From assembly GCA_042217545.1 (NCBI GenBank), contig JBDGSM010000040.1, forward strand, positions 1 to 8,483: a stretch of 8,483 nucleotides of DNA, in the 5' to 3' direction. The notes beneath the pieces were generated by a model that was not told the origin of the DNA, did not search any database, and saw only the letters and a program-made list of their open reading frames with translations. Of this stretch, positions 2,660 to 8,483 are shown piece after piece (position 1 is the first letter of the stretch; the number at the start of each line of letters is the position of its first letter). Position numbers and translations under genes: made by a program. Source of the DNA: Candidatus Nanohalobium sp. (GTDB lineage: Archaea > Nanohalarchaeota > Nanosalinia > Nanosalinales > Nanosalinaceae).

Positions 2660-3451
2660 TTATTCCCCTACCTCCTCTTCGACGATTTCACGGAGTTTTT
2701 CGATCTTCTCGTCCGCTTCCGTCATGATCTGGGAAAGCTCGTCGCTTGTGAAAGGCTCAGATTCTCCCTTCTGCATCGCGACAACGTTTCCATCCTTCTT
2801 CTTGGAAACTGTCAGGCGTGCGTCGAGAGCTTTCTCCTCTTCACCGGTTGTGTCCCAGAGAAGAGTGCTACCGATCTTCCGTCCTGTGACAGTGATCGGT
2901 TCGCACTGGAGTTCGATGTCCTTCCACTTCTCATCCCTGTTCAGTTCTCCTGCTTCCTCATCGTAGGCAGGCAGGTAACCGGACTTCAGTGCTGCCATAG
3001 CGGCAAGACTTGAAGCATCGATCAGGTTACCGTCGTCGTTGAGAACGTGGATGTCGATGAAGACAGTGTAAACCTTCTCTCCCGGTTCCATACAGAGATC
3101 GTTCAGGTCGATAGCTTCCGCTTCCCTGATGCCTCTGTCAACAACTCTTGCAAGCTCTACGCCTGCTTCCTGTGGAGGGCCTGACTCGTACTCACGCTTT
3201 GCCATAGGTGCGAGCTCTGCGTTCGTAACGATCGTTCCCTTCTCAGGCCTGTCGCTGTAAGGCTCCTCGATCTCGATGGAGAGGCCTACAAGGACCTTTG
3301 TATCTCCAATCTGGACGAGTGCGGAACCTTCAGATGTTTCATGGATGTAACCGGTCTCGACTTCGATATCTCTGAAACTGTCAAAGTCTCTGCCGTCTAG
3401 TCTTTCTCCTCCTTCCGCCATTTCGCGGATTGTTTTCTGGTTGAGTTTCAT
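2660..3451 (-). CDS. rrp42: Exosome complex component Rrp42
   Basis: RNase PH fold motifs: RLDGR...FR, EGSALV.IG.T.V, PYSDRP..G, E.GPP...VELARVVDRGIRE, DGNLIDA, VAMQKG. Confidence 0.96.
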   Translation of the reverse strand: MKLNQKTIREMAEGGERLDGRDFDSFRDIEVETGYIHETSEGSALVQIGDTKVLVGLSIEIEEPYSDRPEKGTIVTNAELAPMAKREYESGPPQEAGVELARVVDRGIREAEAIDLNDLCMEPGEKVYTVFIDIHVLNDDGNLIDASSLAAMAALKSGYLPAYDEEAGELNRDEKWKDIELQCEPITVTGRKIGSTLLWDTTGEEEKALDARLTVSKKKDGNVVAMQKGESEPFTSDELSQIMTEADEKIEKLREIVEEEVGE

Positions 3452-3507
3452 TCGAAATCACCTCCGGTGATTTCTGCATGTCCAGAAAATCTTTGATTTT
3501 CGAACAT
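3448..3507 (-). other. 19-codon mini-ORF (MFENQRFSGHAEITGGDFE) bridging the rrp41 stop and the rrp42 start
   Basis: ATG overlaps the rrp41 TAA (TAATG) and is preceded by a perfect GGAGGTGA. Its TGA overlaps the rrp42 ATG (ATGA). Translation is not demonstrated. Confidence 0.5.
3451..3504. repeat. Bipartite palindromic intergenic element, copy 1
   Basis: TTC-GAAATCACC-TCC-GGTGATTTC-TG CATGTC CA-GAAAATC-TTT-GATTTTC-GAA. Two perfect inverted repeats (9 bp and 7 bp), bounded by the outer inverted repeat TTCGAAA/TTTCGAA. Confidence 0.85.
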
Positions 3508-4268
3508 TATTCGTCACCTCCTCTGAGTGCTTCGTATTTTTCAAGCATTGCTTCCTGCTGCATCTCGTGGAGCTGCATACATCCGTCCTTTGCGAGTTCG
3601 ACGCAGTCCTCTACCTGTTCCTGGGTTAGGTCTCCGTCCATCTGGAGAAGGGTGATCTCGTCTCCCCTGCTTTCTCCATCCTCGCTGTAGTTGATCAAAG
3701 CGATCGGGATGTCTGCATTTCCTTCCTTGTCCTCTTTACCGTTGACGTCGAGGACAGGCGTATCATCGACAACTCCTGCTGCACAGGCTGAAACCATTCC
3801 CTTCATAGGGATGCCGGCGTCAGCAAGTGCGAGAGCAGCTGCCGTGATGCCTGTAACTCTTGTTCCTCCGTCGGATTCGACTACCTCCATTGAGATGTCG
3901 ATTCCAGCGGTAGGAAAACGCTCCAGCTCGATAGCTGGTTCAAGAGCCTTCTTTGCTACAAGGCCTATCTCCTTCGCCCTCCTGTTAGGGCCTGGACTCA
4001 TGCGGTCGTCCACGGAGAAAGGCGCCATGTTGTAACGCATCTTGATAACTGCTCTGTCGGATTCCTGAAGGTGCTTAGGGTGTAGCTCCTGAGGTCCGAA
4101 GACTGAAGCAACAACCCTCGTGTTGCCGCATTCGACCATCGCGGAACCATCCGCTTCATTCAGCACGTCAACTTCCATGCTGATCTCTCTCAGTTCGTTC
4201 TTCTCTCTTCCGTCTACACGTTTTCCTTCGTCGTCAAACCATTCGATATCTTTATCTGAACTTGTCAT
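3507..4268 (-). CDS. rrp41: Exosome complex exonuclease Rrp41
   Basis: RVDGR...ELR, ADGSA.VE.G.T.V.A.V.GP.E.HP.H, YNMAPFSV.DR..PGP.RR..E, SDGGTR and LD....ED motifs. The phosphate-binding arginines and catalytic acidic residues appear intact. Confidence 0.97.
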   Translation of the reverse strand: MTSSDKDIEWFDDEGKRVDGREKNELREISMEVDVLNEADGSAMVECGNTRVVASVFGPQELHPKHLQESDRAVIKMRYNMAPFSVDDRMSPGPNRRAKEIGLVAKKALEPAIELERFPTAGIDISMEVVESDGGTRVTGITAAALALADAGIPMKGMVSACAAGVVDDTPVLDVNGKEDKEGNADIPIALINYSEDGESRGDEITLLQMDGDLTQEQVEDCVELAKDGCMQLHEMQQEAMLEKYEALRGGDE

Positions 4269-4967
4269 TTATTCATCACCCTCGATCTTTTCGAGTTCTG
4301 CGTCAAGCCATTCAGCCATCTTCTCGGTAAGGCCTTCTGTATGGGCCTCGCGCTCGACTTTCTTGACAGCTCTCGCTGCAAGATTGGCTTTATCGCCTGA
4401 AATCCAGGCCTGTCCGTTCTGTCCAACGATGATGTTGCAGCTGGTCTTCTCGTTGATCTGCTTGACCATTGTTCCCTTCTTACCGATTACACGGGGAACC
4501 TTCGAAGGCGCGATCTCGATAATCCTTCCGCCTTCAAGCTTCCTGCATCTCTTGTCGGTCATCGTAAGATCGACATCCATACCTTCTGTGACTGACTTGA
4601 CCTTGATGACGACAGCATCTCCAACTTCGTAGAAATCAGTTAGATCGTCCTCGTCAAGATCGACGTACTCGTCCGTAGCGTCGGCGATGTTCAAACTTCC
4701 CTCGTAAGCGGAGTTGAACTCGACGCTCCAGCGAGAGTAACTGACCCTCGTGATCTCGCCGATAATCGTATCGCCCTCGCTAGGCATGTAACGGCCGGAC
4801 ATAGGCCTTACCTCGACTTCCTGTCCATGGTAATGGACAGTGCCCAGGTACTCTGAATAGATTTTATTATTTTCTTCGTAAGCACCAGAAGTCGCAGACA
4901 AAGCATCTGCATCGCTTATTACATCTCCTGGAGTTACAAGGTCATCTTCTTCTTTCACACGTGACAT
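4269..4967 (-). CDS. rrp4: Exosome RNA-binding subunit Rrp4 (S1 + KH domains)
   Basis: LVTPGD, GRY.P..GD.IIG, KVPRVIGKKG.M and IIVGQNG..WI motifs. SD GAGGTAA lies upstream. Confidence 0.96.
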   Translation of the reverse strand: MSRVKEEDDLVTPGDVISDADALSATSGAYEENNKIYSEYLGTVHYHGQEVEVRPMSGRYMPSEGDTIIGEITRVSYSRWSVEFNSAYEGSLNIADATDEYVDLDEDDLTDFYEVGDAVVIKVKSVTEGMDVDLTMTDKRCRKLEGGRIIEIAPSKVPRVIGKKGTMVKQINEKTSCNIIVGQNGQAWISGDKANLAARAVKKVEREAHTEGLTEKMAEWLDAELEKIEGDE

Positions 4968-5030
4968 AAATTGTATTACCTCAAACTTCGTTCAAACTAG
5001 AAAATAGTTCTTTGTATACAGTAAACCGGA

Positions 5031-5047
5031 CGAAAACTTTTTATATT
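5031..5047. promoter_or_regulatory. Archaeal BRE/TATA-like element in the SBDS-rrp4 spacer, orientation ambiguous
   Basis: Reads CGAAAAC-TTTTTATAT on + (BRE plus TATA) and ATATAAAAAG on - (could drive rrp4). Confidence 0.45.
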
Positions 5048-5076
5048 CGCCTCAACGCCCACTGCAGATACAGCAC

Positions 5077-5118
5077 TCGAAAATCTGAGATTTTCTTTGT
5101 TCCCAGAAAAAATCTTCT
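5077..5118. repeat. Bipartite palindromic intergenic element, degenerate copy 3
   Basis: TC-GAAAATCT-G-AGATTTTC-T...CCAGAAAAAATCTTCT. The first inverted repeat is perfect (8 bp) and nearly identical to arm 2 of copy 1. The second half is decayed. Confidence 0.6.
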
Positions 5119-5794
5119 AGGCCTCGGTAACCTCTGACTCGCCGCCGGTTATCTCCTGGATCTTCTCCATCAGTTCTGTAAGGACTCCAGCGGGGACCTT
5201 GATCTTCGCGAAGAAGTACTCGTTGCCCCACTGCTCCTCCAGGACTTCAGCGGTCTGCTGTATAGTATCATAGGCCTTCCCCGCCTTGTCGTTCGGTATC
5301 TTTATAGCGACCTGCTTCTCGTCAAGTGAGACAGGGATTATAGGCCTTATCGCGTCGATGGCCTCGTCGAACTGCTCCTCAACGTCCTTCATGGCGTCGG
5401 CGTTGAAGCCTGCTTCCTCAAGAGCGTTCTCAACTCTCTGTGGTGGGTGTGGGTTCCCTGTCTTCGGGTCCTGTGCTCTTCTGGCGATCATGCTTACGAT
5501 CTGCTTATGCTTCTCCTCGCGCATCTGCTTCTTCTGCTCGGTGGTCAACTGCATGTCTCCTTTCTCGAAGATCTCCTCTGCGGCCTTCATGATCTGCCGT
5601 GTACCGAAATCCTCTTCAAGATCCTCCGCAGAAGCACGTTTTCCCTCTCCGGCGTCTTCAAACACTTCCTGGACGAAGAGAAGTCTCTGAATATCATGAT
5701 CCTTGGCTTCAAGCTTCGCCTCCTTGGCCAACTCCGGCTCTACAAGTATCTCGTATCCCTGGTACCGGACCTTGATCGCATCAGAAGTATCCAT
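5117..5794 (-). CDS. sdo1: Ribosome maturation protein SBDS/Sdo1 (start corrected to ATG at 5794)
   Basis: YEILVEP, VF.DA..G.RAS...L...FGT, I..KG..QLT.EQ, DPKT..PHPP.R.ENALEEA and IRPIIP motifs. The 41-aa extension in the ORF track overlaps the upstream gene and does not resemble the family. Confidence 0.95.
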   Translation of the reverse strand: MDTSDAIKVRYQGYEILVEPELAKEAKLEAKDHDIQRLLFVQEVFEDAGEGKRASAEDLEEDFGTRQIMKAAEEIFEKGDMQLTTEQKKQMREEKHKQIVSMIARRAQDPKTGNPHPPQRVENALEEAGFNADAMKDVEEQFDEAIDAIRPIIPVSLDEKQVAIKIPNDKAGKAYDTIQQTAEVLEEQWGNEYFFAKIKVPAGVLTELMEKIQEITGGESEVTEA

Positions 5795-5816
5795 AACCAA
5801 ATAGGAGGCCTTTTTC

Positions 5817-5832
5817 TTTAAACCTGTTTTCC
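5817..5832 (-). promoter_or_regulatory. Putative BRE/TATA for a leaderless SBDS transcript
   Basis: The minus strand reads GGAAAACAGG-TTTAAA, with the TATA-like hexamer 23-28 nt upstream of ATG 5794 and no SD. Confidence 0.55.
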
Positions 5833-6203
5833 TAGTCCCGATGTATATACCTGTCCTCGCCACCGAAGTAATTGCTCGGCAACCGGTAATAAAGCGGGTT
5901 CTCCGGTCCGTAGACAACAGCGTCCAGTATCAGGAATGCACCTGTCATCAGGACTGTGGCCGTGATTCCCGCGGCCAGAGAGACCAGGTAGTTCAGATGC
6001 GGAAGCCCCAGGAAATCCGGCACCCTGGAAAAAGCAAGGACTACGAAGCCTAGCATTATCATCTGGAAAGAAACCCGGACATCAAGGGCCTTGAAGCTGA
6101 GACGTGCGTAACTCTTCTGCTTCTCCCGCACTATCTGAAGTATGAAAAGACCTGAAAGCAGGATAAGAGGGAGGGTCATGTACGCCCCGATCATCGTCGC
6201 CAA
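5832..6203 (-). CDS. Small membrane protein, about 3 TM helices, unknown function (start TTG 6203 or ATG 6194)
   Basis: Three hydrophobic segments. GGAGGTG lies 7 nt before TTG 6203; alternatively ATG 6194 overlaps the upstream TGA (ATGA). Confidence 0.7.
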   Translation of the reverse strand: MATMIGAYMTLPLILLSGLFILQIVREKQKSYARLSFKALDVRVSFQMIMLGFVVLAFSRVPDFLGLPHLNYLVSLAAGITATVLMTGAFLILDAVVYGPENPLYYRLPSNYFGGEDRYIHRD

Positions 6204-6499
6204 GGCCTTCCACCTCCGGCCAGCCCGTTCAACAGGAAGAAAAACAGCATGTAAAGCAGCAACGCAGTGTCAAAGGCGTAACCTCTCAAAACCTGTTTTC
6301 CAAGGCCTGTCAGGACTGTTCCCGTGAAGACCGCTAGCGAGCCCAGGAATGCAAGGCCGAAGACCAGCGTGGTCTTCTCCTTGTTCAGCTTCAGGAAAGT
6401 AGTGGACCGGTACTCGTTCCCGACCCAACCCTCCTGGAACTCCCAGACAAGGTAGGCCGTGAACAAAAGGCCTAGAGTCACGAAAGCGTCTTCAATCAT
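6191..6499 (-). CDS. Small membrane protein, about 3 TM helices, unknown function
   Basis: Three hydrophobic segments and a basic C-terminus (GRPWRR). Co-oriented and overlapping with the next gene, with an AT-rich upstream spacer. Confidence 0.7.
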   Translation of the reverse strand: MIEDAFVTLGLLFTAYLVWEFQEGWVGNEYRSTTFLKLNKEKTTLVFGLAFLGSLAVFTGTVLTGLGKQVLRGYAFDTALLLYMLFFFLLNGLAGGGRPWRR

Positions 6500-6556
6500 T
6501 AATTAATGAAATAAAAGTAGAGAAATATGAAAGCTTTGGAAAGAAAAAGGCCTTTC

Positions 6557-7267
6557 CTATAGGTCGACGTCAAGCTCTTCCAGTTCCTCGGGAGTTACAC
6601 GCTGGAAAAGCGATTCCTCGTCGACGGTCGACATCTCAACGTTCTCCGTCTCGATATCGTCCTCACCTTCCTTCAAAGCCCTCACAGCAAGCTCCATGGC
6701 CTCTTCCACGGAAAGATCCTCGCTCCAGTTCTCCTCAAGGTACTCATCCGCGTCTTCACCGCCCTTACCGATCGCGATAGCGTTCCACTCGGAAAGCGTA
6801 CCGGAAGGATCAGTATGGTAAACCTTGGTCTCACCGTCCTTCACACCGCCGGAGATCGTGGAAAGACCGTAAGGCCTTACACCTCCGTACTGCGTGAACT
6901 GCTGGCAACGGTCGGCGATAAATTTCGCAAGCACAGAAGTCGGGATGTCCTCATCGTAAGTCATCACATGCTTCTGCGCCTCGTTCCTCGCCTCTTCCAC
7001 GAGCGTTCTTCCGTCGGCTACGAGGCCTGAGGTCGCGACCCCGATATGCTCGTCGATCTTGAACACTTTCTCAGGATTCCTGACCTGAAGATCAGGGATA
7101 TTCCTCGTCGCCGCTAACACGACACCGTCCTCGTAGACAATGCCGAGAGCTGTAGCACCTTTTTTAACTGCTTCTTTAGCGTACTCGACCTGGAACAGAC
7201 GTCCATCAGGAGAGAAAATCGTCGCTCCACGGTCGTACTGCTGCTGTTGCTGATTAGTCATCTGCAT
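6557..7267 (-). CDS. psmA: Proteasome subunit alpha
   Basis: Signature YDR..TIFSPDGRLFQVEYA, plus KGAT.LG, SGLVADGR.LV, QYGGVRPYG, TDPSG and AIG.G motifs. Confidence 0.98.
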   Translation of the reverse strand: MQMTNQQQQQYDRGATIFSPDGRLFQVEYAKEAVKKGATALGIVYEDGVVLAATRNIPDLQVRNPEKVFKIDEHIGVATSGLVADGRTLVEEARNEAQKHVMTYDEDIPTSVLAKFIADRCQQFTQYGGVRPYGLSTISGGVKDGETKVYHTDPSGTLSEWNAIAIGKGGEDADEYLEENWSEDLSVEEAMELAVRALKEGEDDIETENVEMSTVDEESLFQRVTPEELEELDVDL

Positions 7268-7279
7268 AATTTAATTGAG

Positions 7280-7325
7280 CCTCCGTTCGTTTATACAAAA
7301 GAAAGGCCTTGGAAAGCTTAAAAGG
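7280..7325. promoter_or_regulatory. Divergent promoter region between psmA and the PHP gene
   Basis: On +, GAAAG-CTTAAAAG lies about 25-30 nt before ATG 7348. On -, TATAAA (7290-7295) and GGAGG (7280-7284) lie before the psmA ATG. Confidence 0.5.
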
Positions 7326-7347
7326 GTTACAGAACTTACCTAACATA

Positions 7348-8130
7348 ATGCGGTTCGATCTCCACACCCACACAACATACAGCGACGGCAGCCTCATGTA
7401 CCTGATGACCCGCGCTGCACAACAGCAAGGCCTCAACGAAATAGGTTTTGCAGACCACTGCAACGTATCAAACCGCGAAACGATGAAACAGACCAAGTAC
7501 AGGAATGGATTCAACCTCGACCAGACATACAAACGCAGAAGAAAAGCAATCCAGAAAATCAGGGAAGAATACGACATCAAAATTTATGACGCGGTGGAAA
7601 TGGACTACGAACCGCAAGACGGAAAACGAATAAAGGCCTTCCTGGAAAAAGCAGAGTTCGACTACTCCCTCGGAAGCATACACTACCTCGACAACGTCAA
7701 CGTCCACGTAAAAAGCCACTTCAAAAACAAGACGAAGAAAACAAAACGAAAACTCGTCCAGAAATACTTCAAAAAACTGGAGAAAATGATACGCACCGAA
7801 CAGTTCGACATAGTCTCCCACATCGACGTATACAAAAGAAACCCCGCACTACAGGGCTACGCAGACACTGAAAACTACGAAAAAATAGCAGAGGCCTTCA
7901 AAGACTCCAGAACAATCCCCGAAATCAACGCAGGAAGAGCACTCAGAGGCCTAGAAGAACTACACCCAACAAAAGAATTCCGGGAAATCCTAATCGAAAA
8001 AGGAGTCGAATTCACAGTCGGAACAGACAGCCACAAACCCCAGGACATACAAAAACTAAACAAGCACCTCAACCAGAAACTCCAGGAACTCGACATAACA
8101 CCAGTAAAGCCTCACAACCTCCGCAACTGA
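7348..8130 (+). CDS. PHP-domain metallophosphatase, histidinol-phosphatase HisJ/HisK-like (start corrected to ATG 7348)
   Basis: DLHTHT.YSDG, IGFADH, AVEMD, DY.LGSIH, IVSH.D, EINAG and GTDSH.P motifs give the full PHP metal-ligand set. The substrate cannot be determined from the sequence. Confidence 0.9.
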   Translation: MRFDLHTHTTYSDGSLMYLMTRAAQQQGLNEIGFADHCNVSNRETMKQTKYRNGFNLDQTYKRRRKAIQKIREEYDIKIYDAVEMDYEPQDGKRIKAFLEKAEFDYSLGSIHYLDNVNVHVKSHFKNKTKKTKRKLVQKYFKKLEKMIRTEQFDIVSHIDVYKRNPALQGYADTENYEKIAEAFKDSRTIPEINAGRALRGLEELHPTKEFREILIEKGVEFTVGTDSHKPQDIQKLNKHLNQKLQELDITPVKPHNLRN

Positions 8131-8231
8131 AAAGAAAGCCTTTTTCAAAATACACCTTCAAACCCAATTAACGTAGGATGAAAAGGCCTAGCGCCTTAGA
8201 CCAACTGGTTACGCTCAGGTCGGCACGCAAG

Positions 8232-8253
8232 GCATGGTTCAACTGAACCATGC
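8232..8253. repeat. Perfect 10-bp inverted repeat GCATGGTTCA-AC-TGAACCATGC
   Basis: Read directly from the sequence. Confidence 0.8.
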
Positions 8254-8269
8254 ATTCAGATGATCAAGC

Positions 8270-8318
8270 TCGAAACTCCTCAGGAGTTTCTGGCAATCAG
8301 AAACTCCAAAGAATTTCG
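8270..8318. repeat. Bipartite palindromic intergenic element, copy 2
   Basis: TC-GAAACTCCT-C-AGGAGTTTC-TG GCAAT CA-GAAACTC-CAAA-GAATTTC-G. Same CGAAA/TTTCTG/CAGAAA/TTTCG scaffold as copy 1, with different but self-complementary stems. Confidence 0.8.
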
Positions 8319-8338: not shown

Positions 8339-8483
8339 GGTCCACTAGCTCAGGGGTTAGAGCGCCGTCCTTATACGGACACCAGCACAGAAAAGCACTT
8401 GCCTGAAAAAAGGCCTGTGCCGGTCGCCTACTACTTCATCCGAAGATAGGCGGTGGTCCCGGGTTCGAATCCCGGGTGGACCA
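8339..8483 (+). tRNA. tRNA-Ile (anticodon UAU) with a 72-nt intron at 37/38 (8376-8447)
   Basis: Acceptor GGTCCAC/GTGGACC with discriminator A8483. D-arm GCTC..GAGC. Anticodon stem CCGTC/GGCGG with loop CT-TAT-A^A. T-arm CCGGG-TTCGAAT-CCCGG. C4-G69 and A73 fit Ile identity. Relaxed bulge-helix-bulge at the exon-intron junctions. Confidence 0.9.

Follow-up and report, generated by a model that had tools for sequence, protein, structure and literature searches.

How does a palindromic repeat come to lie between the genes of an essential operon, and what allows it to stay there? Nanohaloarchaeal genomes of about 1 Mb have almost no spare DNA, yet many hairpins occur in their most essential operons. 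We address this question with a stretch of DNA from Candidatus Nanohalobium sp., hereafter the window, which is the complete contig C35 (8,483 nt; GenBank JBDGSM010000040.1) of an assembly (GCA_042217545.1) comprising 1.03 Mb in 82 contigs and 92% complete. An initial annotation had described in it a bipartite palindrome of about 50 bp in three intergenic spacers. The three palindromes lie where they had been placed, and they are copies of a small repeat family found across the phylum. On balance we are inclined to regard this family as selfish, with copies that are often gained and lost and that persist at gene junctions as a translated bridge carrying a Shine-Dalgarno (SD) sequence. The window copies and their parts, with the two hairpins of copy 1 denoted hp1 and hp2, are as follows:

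3452..3506, minus strand: copy 1, full module of 55 nt between the Rrp41 and Rrp42 cistrons, without a counterpart in strain SG9 and most relatives
3485..3501, minus strand: hp1 of copy 1, a 7-bp stem GAAAATC/GATTTTC with the sense-strand loop AAA, 5 nt past the Rrp41 stop
3475..3484, minus strand: spacer between the hairpins of copy 1, sense TGGACATGCA, recurring at non-orthologous copies and identical in L006
3454..3474, minus strand: hp2 of copy 1, a 9-bp stem ending 2 nt ahead of the Rrp42 ATG
3448..3507, minus strand: bridging mini open reading frame (ORF) of copy 1, 19 codons (MFENQRFSGHAEITGGDFE), with TAATG at the Rrp41 stop and ATGA at the Rrp42 start
8271..8318, no strand assigned: copy 2, a double hairpin ending 20 nt upstream of a tRNA gene, missing from the orthologous leader in SG9
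5079..5095, minus strand: copy 3, one perfect hairpin GAAAATC/GATTTTC, 21 nt past the SBDS stop
5100..5119, minus strand: decayed partner hairpin of copy 3, a weak G-U-rich stem overlapping the SBDS stop codon

To define the repeat, we combined an exhaustive enumeration of hairpins with exact-word scans, counting as perfect those with a stem of at least 7 bp and a loop of 3-8 nt and taking 20 dinucleotide shuffles of the genome as the background. The pattern proposed initially does recover many further copies above the shuffled background. In its full bipartite form it yields ten matches on both strands, which correspond to five loci (window 3453-3502 and 8271-8318, C41:14973, C64:2272 and C78:16363), and none in the shuffles, while the half pattern gives 37 matches (shuffle mean 12.6, maximum 18) and the exact word GAAAATC-N3-GATTTTC gives 30 on both strands, with none in the control. 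The list of perfect hairpins compiled with no motif imposed has 695 entries, among which 85 start with GAAA and 51 with GAAG (136 together). By these counts the repeat unit is a single hairpin; the bipartite pattern of about 50 bp is real, but it represents a frequent arrangement of two units as an inverted pair. Likewise, the closing motif CGAAA/TTTCG is found but generalises to GAAR/YTTC, and the loops, thought to be mostly 1-4 nt long, measure mostly 3-5 nt. A unit is thus 17-25 nt long and closed by GAAR/YTTC, an inverted pair usually takes up about 45-55 nt, and the genome carries roughly a hundred such hairpins. Their orientation is set by the flanks (C-GAAR...YTTC-T(G), with the reverse complement (C)A-GAAR...YTTC-G), and the 31 adjacent pairs are mostly head to head, that is, inverted ('A then B'). 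As many as 77 of the 97 perfect GAAR...YTTC hairpins lie outside gene calls, in 12% of the genome. When stems of 6 bp are admitted, the genome-wide count (231) is barely above that of Markov shuffles (160-204), and only the intergenic fraction and the stems of at least 7 bp are therefore informative.

The copies also resemble each other beyond the closing motifs. Among the 28 double hairpins of the genome, 86 of 378 pairs are 70-87% identical, whereas shuffled sequences reach 58% at most; the closest relative of copy 1, with 87% identity, is located at the L11/L1 junction (C26:27377). RNA folding predicts two hairpins for copy 1 (z -4.3) and, in agreement with the alternative pairing of inner arms noticed initially, a single long hairpin as the best structure of copy 2 (z -6.3 and -7.6), while the perfect hairpin and decayed partner of copy 3 give z -0.8, which is not significant alone. 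Of the 70 species genomes of the phylum, 49 contain the exact 17-nt hp1 word, at up to 15 loci each and with a control of zero everywhere; these include members of four of the five families, the fifth being represented by one genome. Among five outgroup archaea (two Halobacteriales, a Woesearchaeote, a Pacearchaeote and a saline Nanoarchaeote) the word was found once, in one genome, and the half pattern was at control level. The three window sites are members of a phylum-wide family of small, non-autonomous palindromic repeats. Rfam 15 covariance models run on the window at E <= 1 matched the tRNA alone, a comparison of hp1 plus spacer with viral contigs gave no match, and a full-text literature search, in which the matches listed for 'palindromic' were judged by title and abstract only, yielded no description of this nanohaloarchaeal family.

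Gain and loss were assessed by comparison with relatives. The orthologous locus was found in about 40 other nanohaloarchaeal genomes, and the main reference was the complete genome of a congener, Nanohaloarchaea archaeon SG9, with which the window shares 91% identity in the Rrp41 protein. Orthologous sites had been suggested as the place to look for empty alleles, and at several loci the relatives are indeed empty. From this genome to SG9, 57 of 73 hairpin clusters can be mapped, of which 17 are absent, 29 present and 11 partial (about 30% differ), and in the opposite direction 34 of 56 can be mapped (8 absent, 20 present, 6 partial). At the Rrp41/Rrp42 junction most relatives have a compact overlap of the two genes; the module is present in L006, L018 and L025 as well as in the window and has decayed in L024, and the hp2 hairpins of L006 and the window differ by paired changes. 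The module occupies the Rrp4/Rrp41 junction instead in L003, L004 and L026 and follows Rrp42 in L010 and L018, while in 18 of 28 loci about 6.7 kb of the Rrp operon are free of perfect GAAR hairpins. The L1/L10 junction is compact in 21 of 30 loci and filled in nine, with both states found within each of the genera g1, g7, g15 and g17. At the place matching copy 3, SG9 has a degenerate double hairpin ahead of the Rrp4 promoter. Elements also nest in one another: compared with SG9 854500-854548, a 47-nt insertion, itself a hairpin, separates the halves of a double hairpin at C71:11181-11300. In the source metagenomes, further contigs match window 3471-3507 alone, a segment covering the old ATG, hp1, the spacer and the first part of hp2, and their sequence differs on either side of it, with loose ends at 3471 in 4, 6 and 3 contigs across three runs and at 3507-3509 in 4, 3 and 2; no joint skipping a module and no empty allele was seen among the metagenome contigs, which drop rare variants.

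Copies are found inside genes as well. Compared with SG9, in-frame inserts of 51, 51 and 27 nt, together with one of 30 nt, occur in MazG-like, helicase-like and OGG-like genes. The copy in the MazG-like gene, when reversed, has 84% identity with an intergenic one at C51:1146, and its 51-nt insert was seen in this genome only. Among 40 other genomes with a match to this gene, absence is direct in 24: in 13 a single high-scoring segment pair (HSP) crosses the site and is 16-19 codons short, and in 11 two HSPs abut (residues 1-34 and 52-121); the remaining 16 have a C-terminal HSP alone and are uninformative. The polarity is clear in this case, the insert being the derived state.

At gene junctions the family has a regular geometry. 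In co-directional spacers of this genome and SG9 the hairpins fall into two position classes, corresponding to hp1 and hp2 of copy 1. The hp1 hairpins stand 28-38 nt ahead of the downstream start and a few nucleotides past the upstream stop in both genomes, and their loops are purine-rich on the sense strand in this genome. The hp2 hairpins stand 2-5 nt ahead of the start and hold AGGT(G) in the loop and 3' arm, in 10 of 11 cases here and in all nine in SG9. As the 16S rRNA, located on C58, ends with ...GGATCACCTCC, this motif is an SD sequence; in copy 1 it is GGAGGTGA (window 3458-3465), within the loop and 3' arm of hp2. The junctions hosting the hairpins are L3/L4/L23, L29/SUI1, L14/L24, an unnamed gene/L5, L11/L1/L10, L18e/L13/S9, Rpb7/Spt4, ATPase F/A and Rrp41/Rrp42.

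The same junctions are crossed by short open frames. In copy 1 the overlap TAATG, which is ancestral, is still on the Rrp41 stop, and a frame of 19 codons starting from its ATG crosses hp1, the spacer and hp2 and closes with a TGA overlapping the ATG of Rrp42. The initial placement of the palindromes in intergenic spacers thus needs to be qualified, as copy 1 lies not in an untranslated spacer but inside this open frame. In spacers of 40-120 nt, a bridging frame is present in 12 of 13 that contain hairpins and in 7 of 191 that do not (Fisher p 8e-14), the corresponding figures for SG9 being 11 of 18 and 13 of 222 (Fisher p 2e-8). In other genera, the open frame ends 2-3 nt ahead of the start in all nine filled L1/L10 junctions, with the first start codon at most 5 nt from the L1 stop in six of them, and all three filled Rrp4/Rrp41 junctions have a bridging frame. 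The frame in which hp1 is read differs among the copies, all three frames being represented (...ENQRFS..., ...KIKDF..., ...KSKIF...). What is kept is therefore the DNA together with an open frame rather than a peptide, and no conserved peptide is to be expected. A loop ending in T would make TGA with the GA of the stem, which may account for the purine-rich sense loops.

The second setting of the family is tRNA genes, which copy 2 illustrates together with two neighbouring features:

8339..8483, plus strand: tRNA gene with a 72-73-nt intron and the anticodon read as TAT (ARAGORN -i), the downstream neighbour of copy 2
8200..8270, plus strand: repeat X, ACTGGTTACGCTCAG...GCACGCAAG, a 10-bp hairpin and ...GATGATCAAGCT, directly upstream of copy 2

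The window tRNA is missed by ARAGORN without the intron option; in the set obtained with this program, 19 of 35 genes have an intron of 32-221 nt. Hairpins or copies of the tRNA 3' end are associated with 17 of 35 tRNAs here and with 15 of 40 in SG9. The hairpins lie in the intron in five cases, at most 80 nt upstream in five and at most 160 nt downstream in four, and seven tRNAs are followed by a copy of at least 13 nt of their own 3' end. Upstream of four tRNAs (the window tRNA, His, Gly-GCC and Asp) 20-22 nt separate the end of the last hairpin from the mature 5' end, and the tRNA-Ala of SG9 has the intron without the double hairpin. At least nine tRNA trailers share a more elaborate layout, in which the 3' end of the tRNA recurs first inverted and imperfect and then, after one to three GAAR hairpins, as an exact direct copy of 13-24 nt; the whole is a long palindrome that folds as one hairpin and has the GAAR hairpin as its tip (among other sites, C14:140-225, C23:34100-34195, C17:20400-20484, C71:5592-5677, C58:3063-3138, C20:3700-3780 and C59:55-180). 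At the gene junctions, hp1 and the spacer are common to the sites and the interior of hp2 varies from site to site. Both patterns hint at a process that copies target sequence. A casposase or CRISPR integrase was considered as the source of the long tRNA-end duplications and rejected, Cas1 having been found in SG9 only.

Repeat X has the general form ACTGGTTACGCTCAG ... GCACGCAAG followed by an 8-10-bp hairpin and ... GATGATCAA, and has no Rfam match. Its copies were found by BLAST, a motif search with two mismatches returning mostly noise. One further full copy exists (C67:18760-18827, 77%), the 5' part opens the introns of four tRNAs (Trp, C37:824-1117; Ala, C58:2856-3063; Glu, C17:16968-17168; Thr, C29:7267-7480), and the repeat is also found upstream of tRNA-Ile and, reversed, of tRNA-His. 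In another genus (L186), a near copy fills the L1/L10 junction as a bridging frame of 30 codons.

How could such a repeat be tolerated? We suggest that the family persists only where it does little harm, namely at translationally coupled gene junctions, in introns and flanks of tRNA genes and, occasionally, in frame within genes. A junction module splits the ancestral overlap of stop and start, and its tolerance would rest on its being part of the operon transcript and being translated as a short bridging ORF. Initiation would take place at the old ATG, which lies on the upstream stop, the translating ribosome would melt hp1 and hp2, and the ORF would stop on the new start codon, for which hp2 would provide the SD sequence, so that coupling to the downstream gene would be kept. 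We infer here that the module is transcribed, that the mini-ORF is translated, that coupling takes place and that the repeat is mobile.

Several observations weigh against this scenario. The genes were called with a crude in-house caller. Simple insertion is at odds with the fate of the 39 hairpins that have an SG9 counterpart, of which four are identical, ten have changed while keeping a stem of at least 6 bp, and 25 have decayed or gone. The end of Rrp41 in SG9, ...GGAGGTGATTTCTAATG, resembles the remnant expected when a filled allele undergoes a deletion between its two GGAGGTGA repeats, and some of the 'empty' sites are thus probably losses. The direct repeats found at 22 + 10 indel borders are of inconsistent length (0-12 nt) and thus define no transposon-like target duplication; the flanks are 70-90% identical and the borders hence imprecise. 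A mobilising enzyme did not emerge either. The linked HUH/TnpA(REP)-type transposase for which the initial annotation had proposed a search was sought as the HUH/RAYT Y1 transposase domain (PF01797) and found in none of five nanohaloarchaeal genomes, including the complete SG9; in the control search, 6 of 14 genomes had the domain. In the same five genomes, for which the search took in five enzyme families, DDE_Tnp_1 never exceeded the cut-off, and a TnpB-type match did so in this genome only. Tyrosine recombinases are present in all five, as expected for Xer-type enzymes, and point to no link with the family. The TnpB-type (Cas12f1-like_TNB) frame encodes 348 aa (C21:22385-22570, minus strand), and no Y1 TnpA partner was found for it. 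Finally, a function for the host would likewise be compatible with so stereotyped a geometry, with the enrichment in ribosomal-protein operons and with the phylum-wide presence.

Such a function is the content of the alternative that we take most seriously, although we consider it rather unlikely: the pair may be an RNA device selected by the host, either with hp2 masking the SD sequence and start of the downstream gene, so that initiation there is reserved for ribosomes that come through the mini-ORF and coupling is enforced, or as a site of mRNA processing or stabilisation between cistrons and around tRNAs. The fixed distances of hp1 (28-38 nt) and hp2 (2-5 nt) from the downstream start, found in two genomes, the SD sequence within hp2, the overlapping stops and starts, the nature of the host operons (ribosomal-protein, exosome, RNA-polymerase and ATPase) and the occurrence throughout the phylum all agree with it, as do orthologous hairpins that keep pairing despite changes in the stem (e.g. 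C24:13758, C17:17086 and C42:1095). However, most relatives do without the module at the very same junctions (21 of 30 L1/L10 and 18 of 28 Rrp operon loci), the copies in frame in three genes and those in tRNA introns are in places that offer no task for such a device, and 25 of the 39 hairpins with an SG9 counterpart have decayed or gone there. The selfish-repeat and host-device readings are not mutually exclusive. We regard a site acting at the level of DNA as very improbable, be it a promoter with a BRE-like (transcription factor B recognition element) CGAAA and an A/T-rich core, a terminator, or a site for a dimeric or cruciform-binding protein. The distances of 20-22 nt to four tRNA 5' ends and of about 40 nt from hp1 to gene starts would suit a promoter, and CGAAA resembles the haloarchaeal BRE. 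Yet other tRNAs and leaderless genes have ordinary TATA boxes of the TTTAAAA type about 30-45 nt upstream, copies occur within ORFs and introns, and hp2 ends 2 nt before the ATG, for which reasons the promoter was rejected as the main explanation; moreover, a rigid dimer site has no need of stems that vary while staying complementary, nor of the variable distance from GAAR to YTTC that is observed.

A different view denies the hairpins any identity as an element and sees in them by-products of repair or replication, with fold-back priming or template switching turning local sequence into hairpins. The tRNA trailers, with their inverted copy, hairpins and exact direct copy after at least nine tRNAs, and the site-specific interior of hp2 combined with a shared hp1 and spacer are what such a process could leave. 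Against it, unrelated sites and different genera share a conserved hp1, spacer and GAAR/YTTC ends, which requires either templated copying or a constraint common to them, and we deem this view improbable. A more speculative proposal, which we consider rather unlikely, is that of a 'coupling cassette' that spreads by itself, without a transposase, by hairpin priming or template switching, the reaction also producing inverted and direct copies of the target. If true, it would account for the 5' arm of hp2 being specific to its site and for the tRNA 3'-end pattern, and the cassette would feed new sequence into tRNA introns and gene junctions across DPANN archaea. To return to the selfish repeat that we favour, its place among known elements can be considered next.

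The analogy with REP/BIME or Rickettsia palindromic elements (RPE) proposed initially for a non-autonomous repeat is borne out by the excess of copies, the empty sites and the in-frame copies. The family is an analogue of REP/BIME, of RPE and of mitochondrial double-hairpin elements, and a member of none of them. According to the available parts of PMC2817692, REP/BIME/REPIN sequences are short imperfect palindromes, often in regularly spaced pairs of alternating orientation, between the genes of operons. The nanohaloarchaeal hairpins are similarly paired short palindromes of alternating orientation (31 adjacent pairs), and they share with REP/BIME the intercistronic sites in operons and the species-specific dynamics described in the same portions of that source. 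They differ in that none of the five genomes has a RAYT/Y1 transposase, that the ends read C-GAAR...YTTC-TG with no GTAG/CGTC tag, that a genome holds about 100 hairpins rather than hundreds, with diverse stems, and that the extragenic rule is broken by the copies in the MazG-like, helicase-like and OGG-like genes and by the junction copies in open frames. With no RAYT, no GTAG tag and no confinement to extragenic DNA, the family falls outside REP/BIME. It probably also falls outside the miniature inverted-repeat transposable elements: a search via Y1_Tnp, DDE_Tnp_1 and TnpB linked no parent insertion sequence to the repeat, and the indel borders, imprecise as they are, show no target duplication of common length.

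RPE, as far as the consulted sections of PMC10969869 describe them, are about 100-150 bp long, encode a conserved peptide, are confined to Rickettsia and are inserted in frame in unrelated genes. A reduced genome, in-frame insertion into unrelated ORFs and, in those sections, the lack of a known dedicated transposase are common to both, whereas the nanohaloarchaeal unit is 17-55 nt long, is read in several frames, occurs mainly at junctions and tRNA genes, and has an archaeal host. The mitochondrial double-hairpin elements, in the available parts of PMC7218506 and PMC4478555, are tiny two-hairpin or palindromic repeats whose mobility is deduced from their optional presence. They resemble the present family, to the extent covered there, in being optional among relatives, in merging and shuffling and in having no known transposition mechanism, but they are organellar and of unrelated sequence, and those parts describe no SD-bearing hairpin or bridging ORF. 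Similar sequences in introns of different tRNAs, finally, are reported for the transposed bulge-helix-bulge (BHB) introns of Thermoproteales (Fujishima et al. 2010, as excerpted via PMC4033280), and the same kind of sharing is seen here; unlike an archaeal BHB intron, in which the spliced unit is the element itself, the hairpin pair is a passenger of the intron, which SG9 tRNA-Ala has without it, and is also found outside tRNAs.

For completeness, the remaining content of the window is as follows:

Minus strand: genes for SNase, SepF, UPF0147, prefoldin, L37ae, Rrp42, Rrp41, Rrp4, SBDS, two unnamed membrane-like ORFs and proteasome alpha
Plus strand: PHP-domain gene and the intron-bearing tRNA
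6359-6377: GAAR...YTTC hairpin inside an unnamed membrane-protein ORF (6191-6499), imperfect in SG9
8129-8146: GAAR...YTTC hairpin with a 6-bp stem, overlapping the stop of the PHP-domain gene

The last two hairpins may be due to chance or represent old copies. A separate observation concerns the palindrome AGGCCT, which occurs 3,699 times in the 1.03 Mb (mean hexamer count 252, next palindromic hexamer 603). Called genes contain 3,142 of these sites; the palindrome is often found within AAAGGCCTTT after gene ends, and 31 sites fall in the window (e.g. 5809, 6548, 7305 and 8183).

If the interpretation that we favour is correct, a selfish repeat would survive in a streamlined genome by carrying a ribosome-binding site, staying open in all frames and restoring the coupling that it interrupts. 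For annotation this would be a warning, because 'spacers' of 45-70 nt in these operons would then be translated frames. The spread of the family with no recognisable transposase poses a mechanistic question, and co-cultures of nanohaloarchaea and haloarchaea exist. The family also offers a handle on how sequence is gained in the introns and leaders of archaeal tRNAs.

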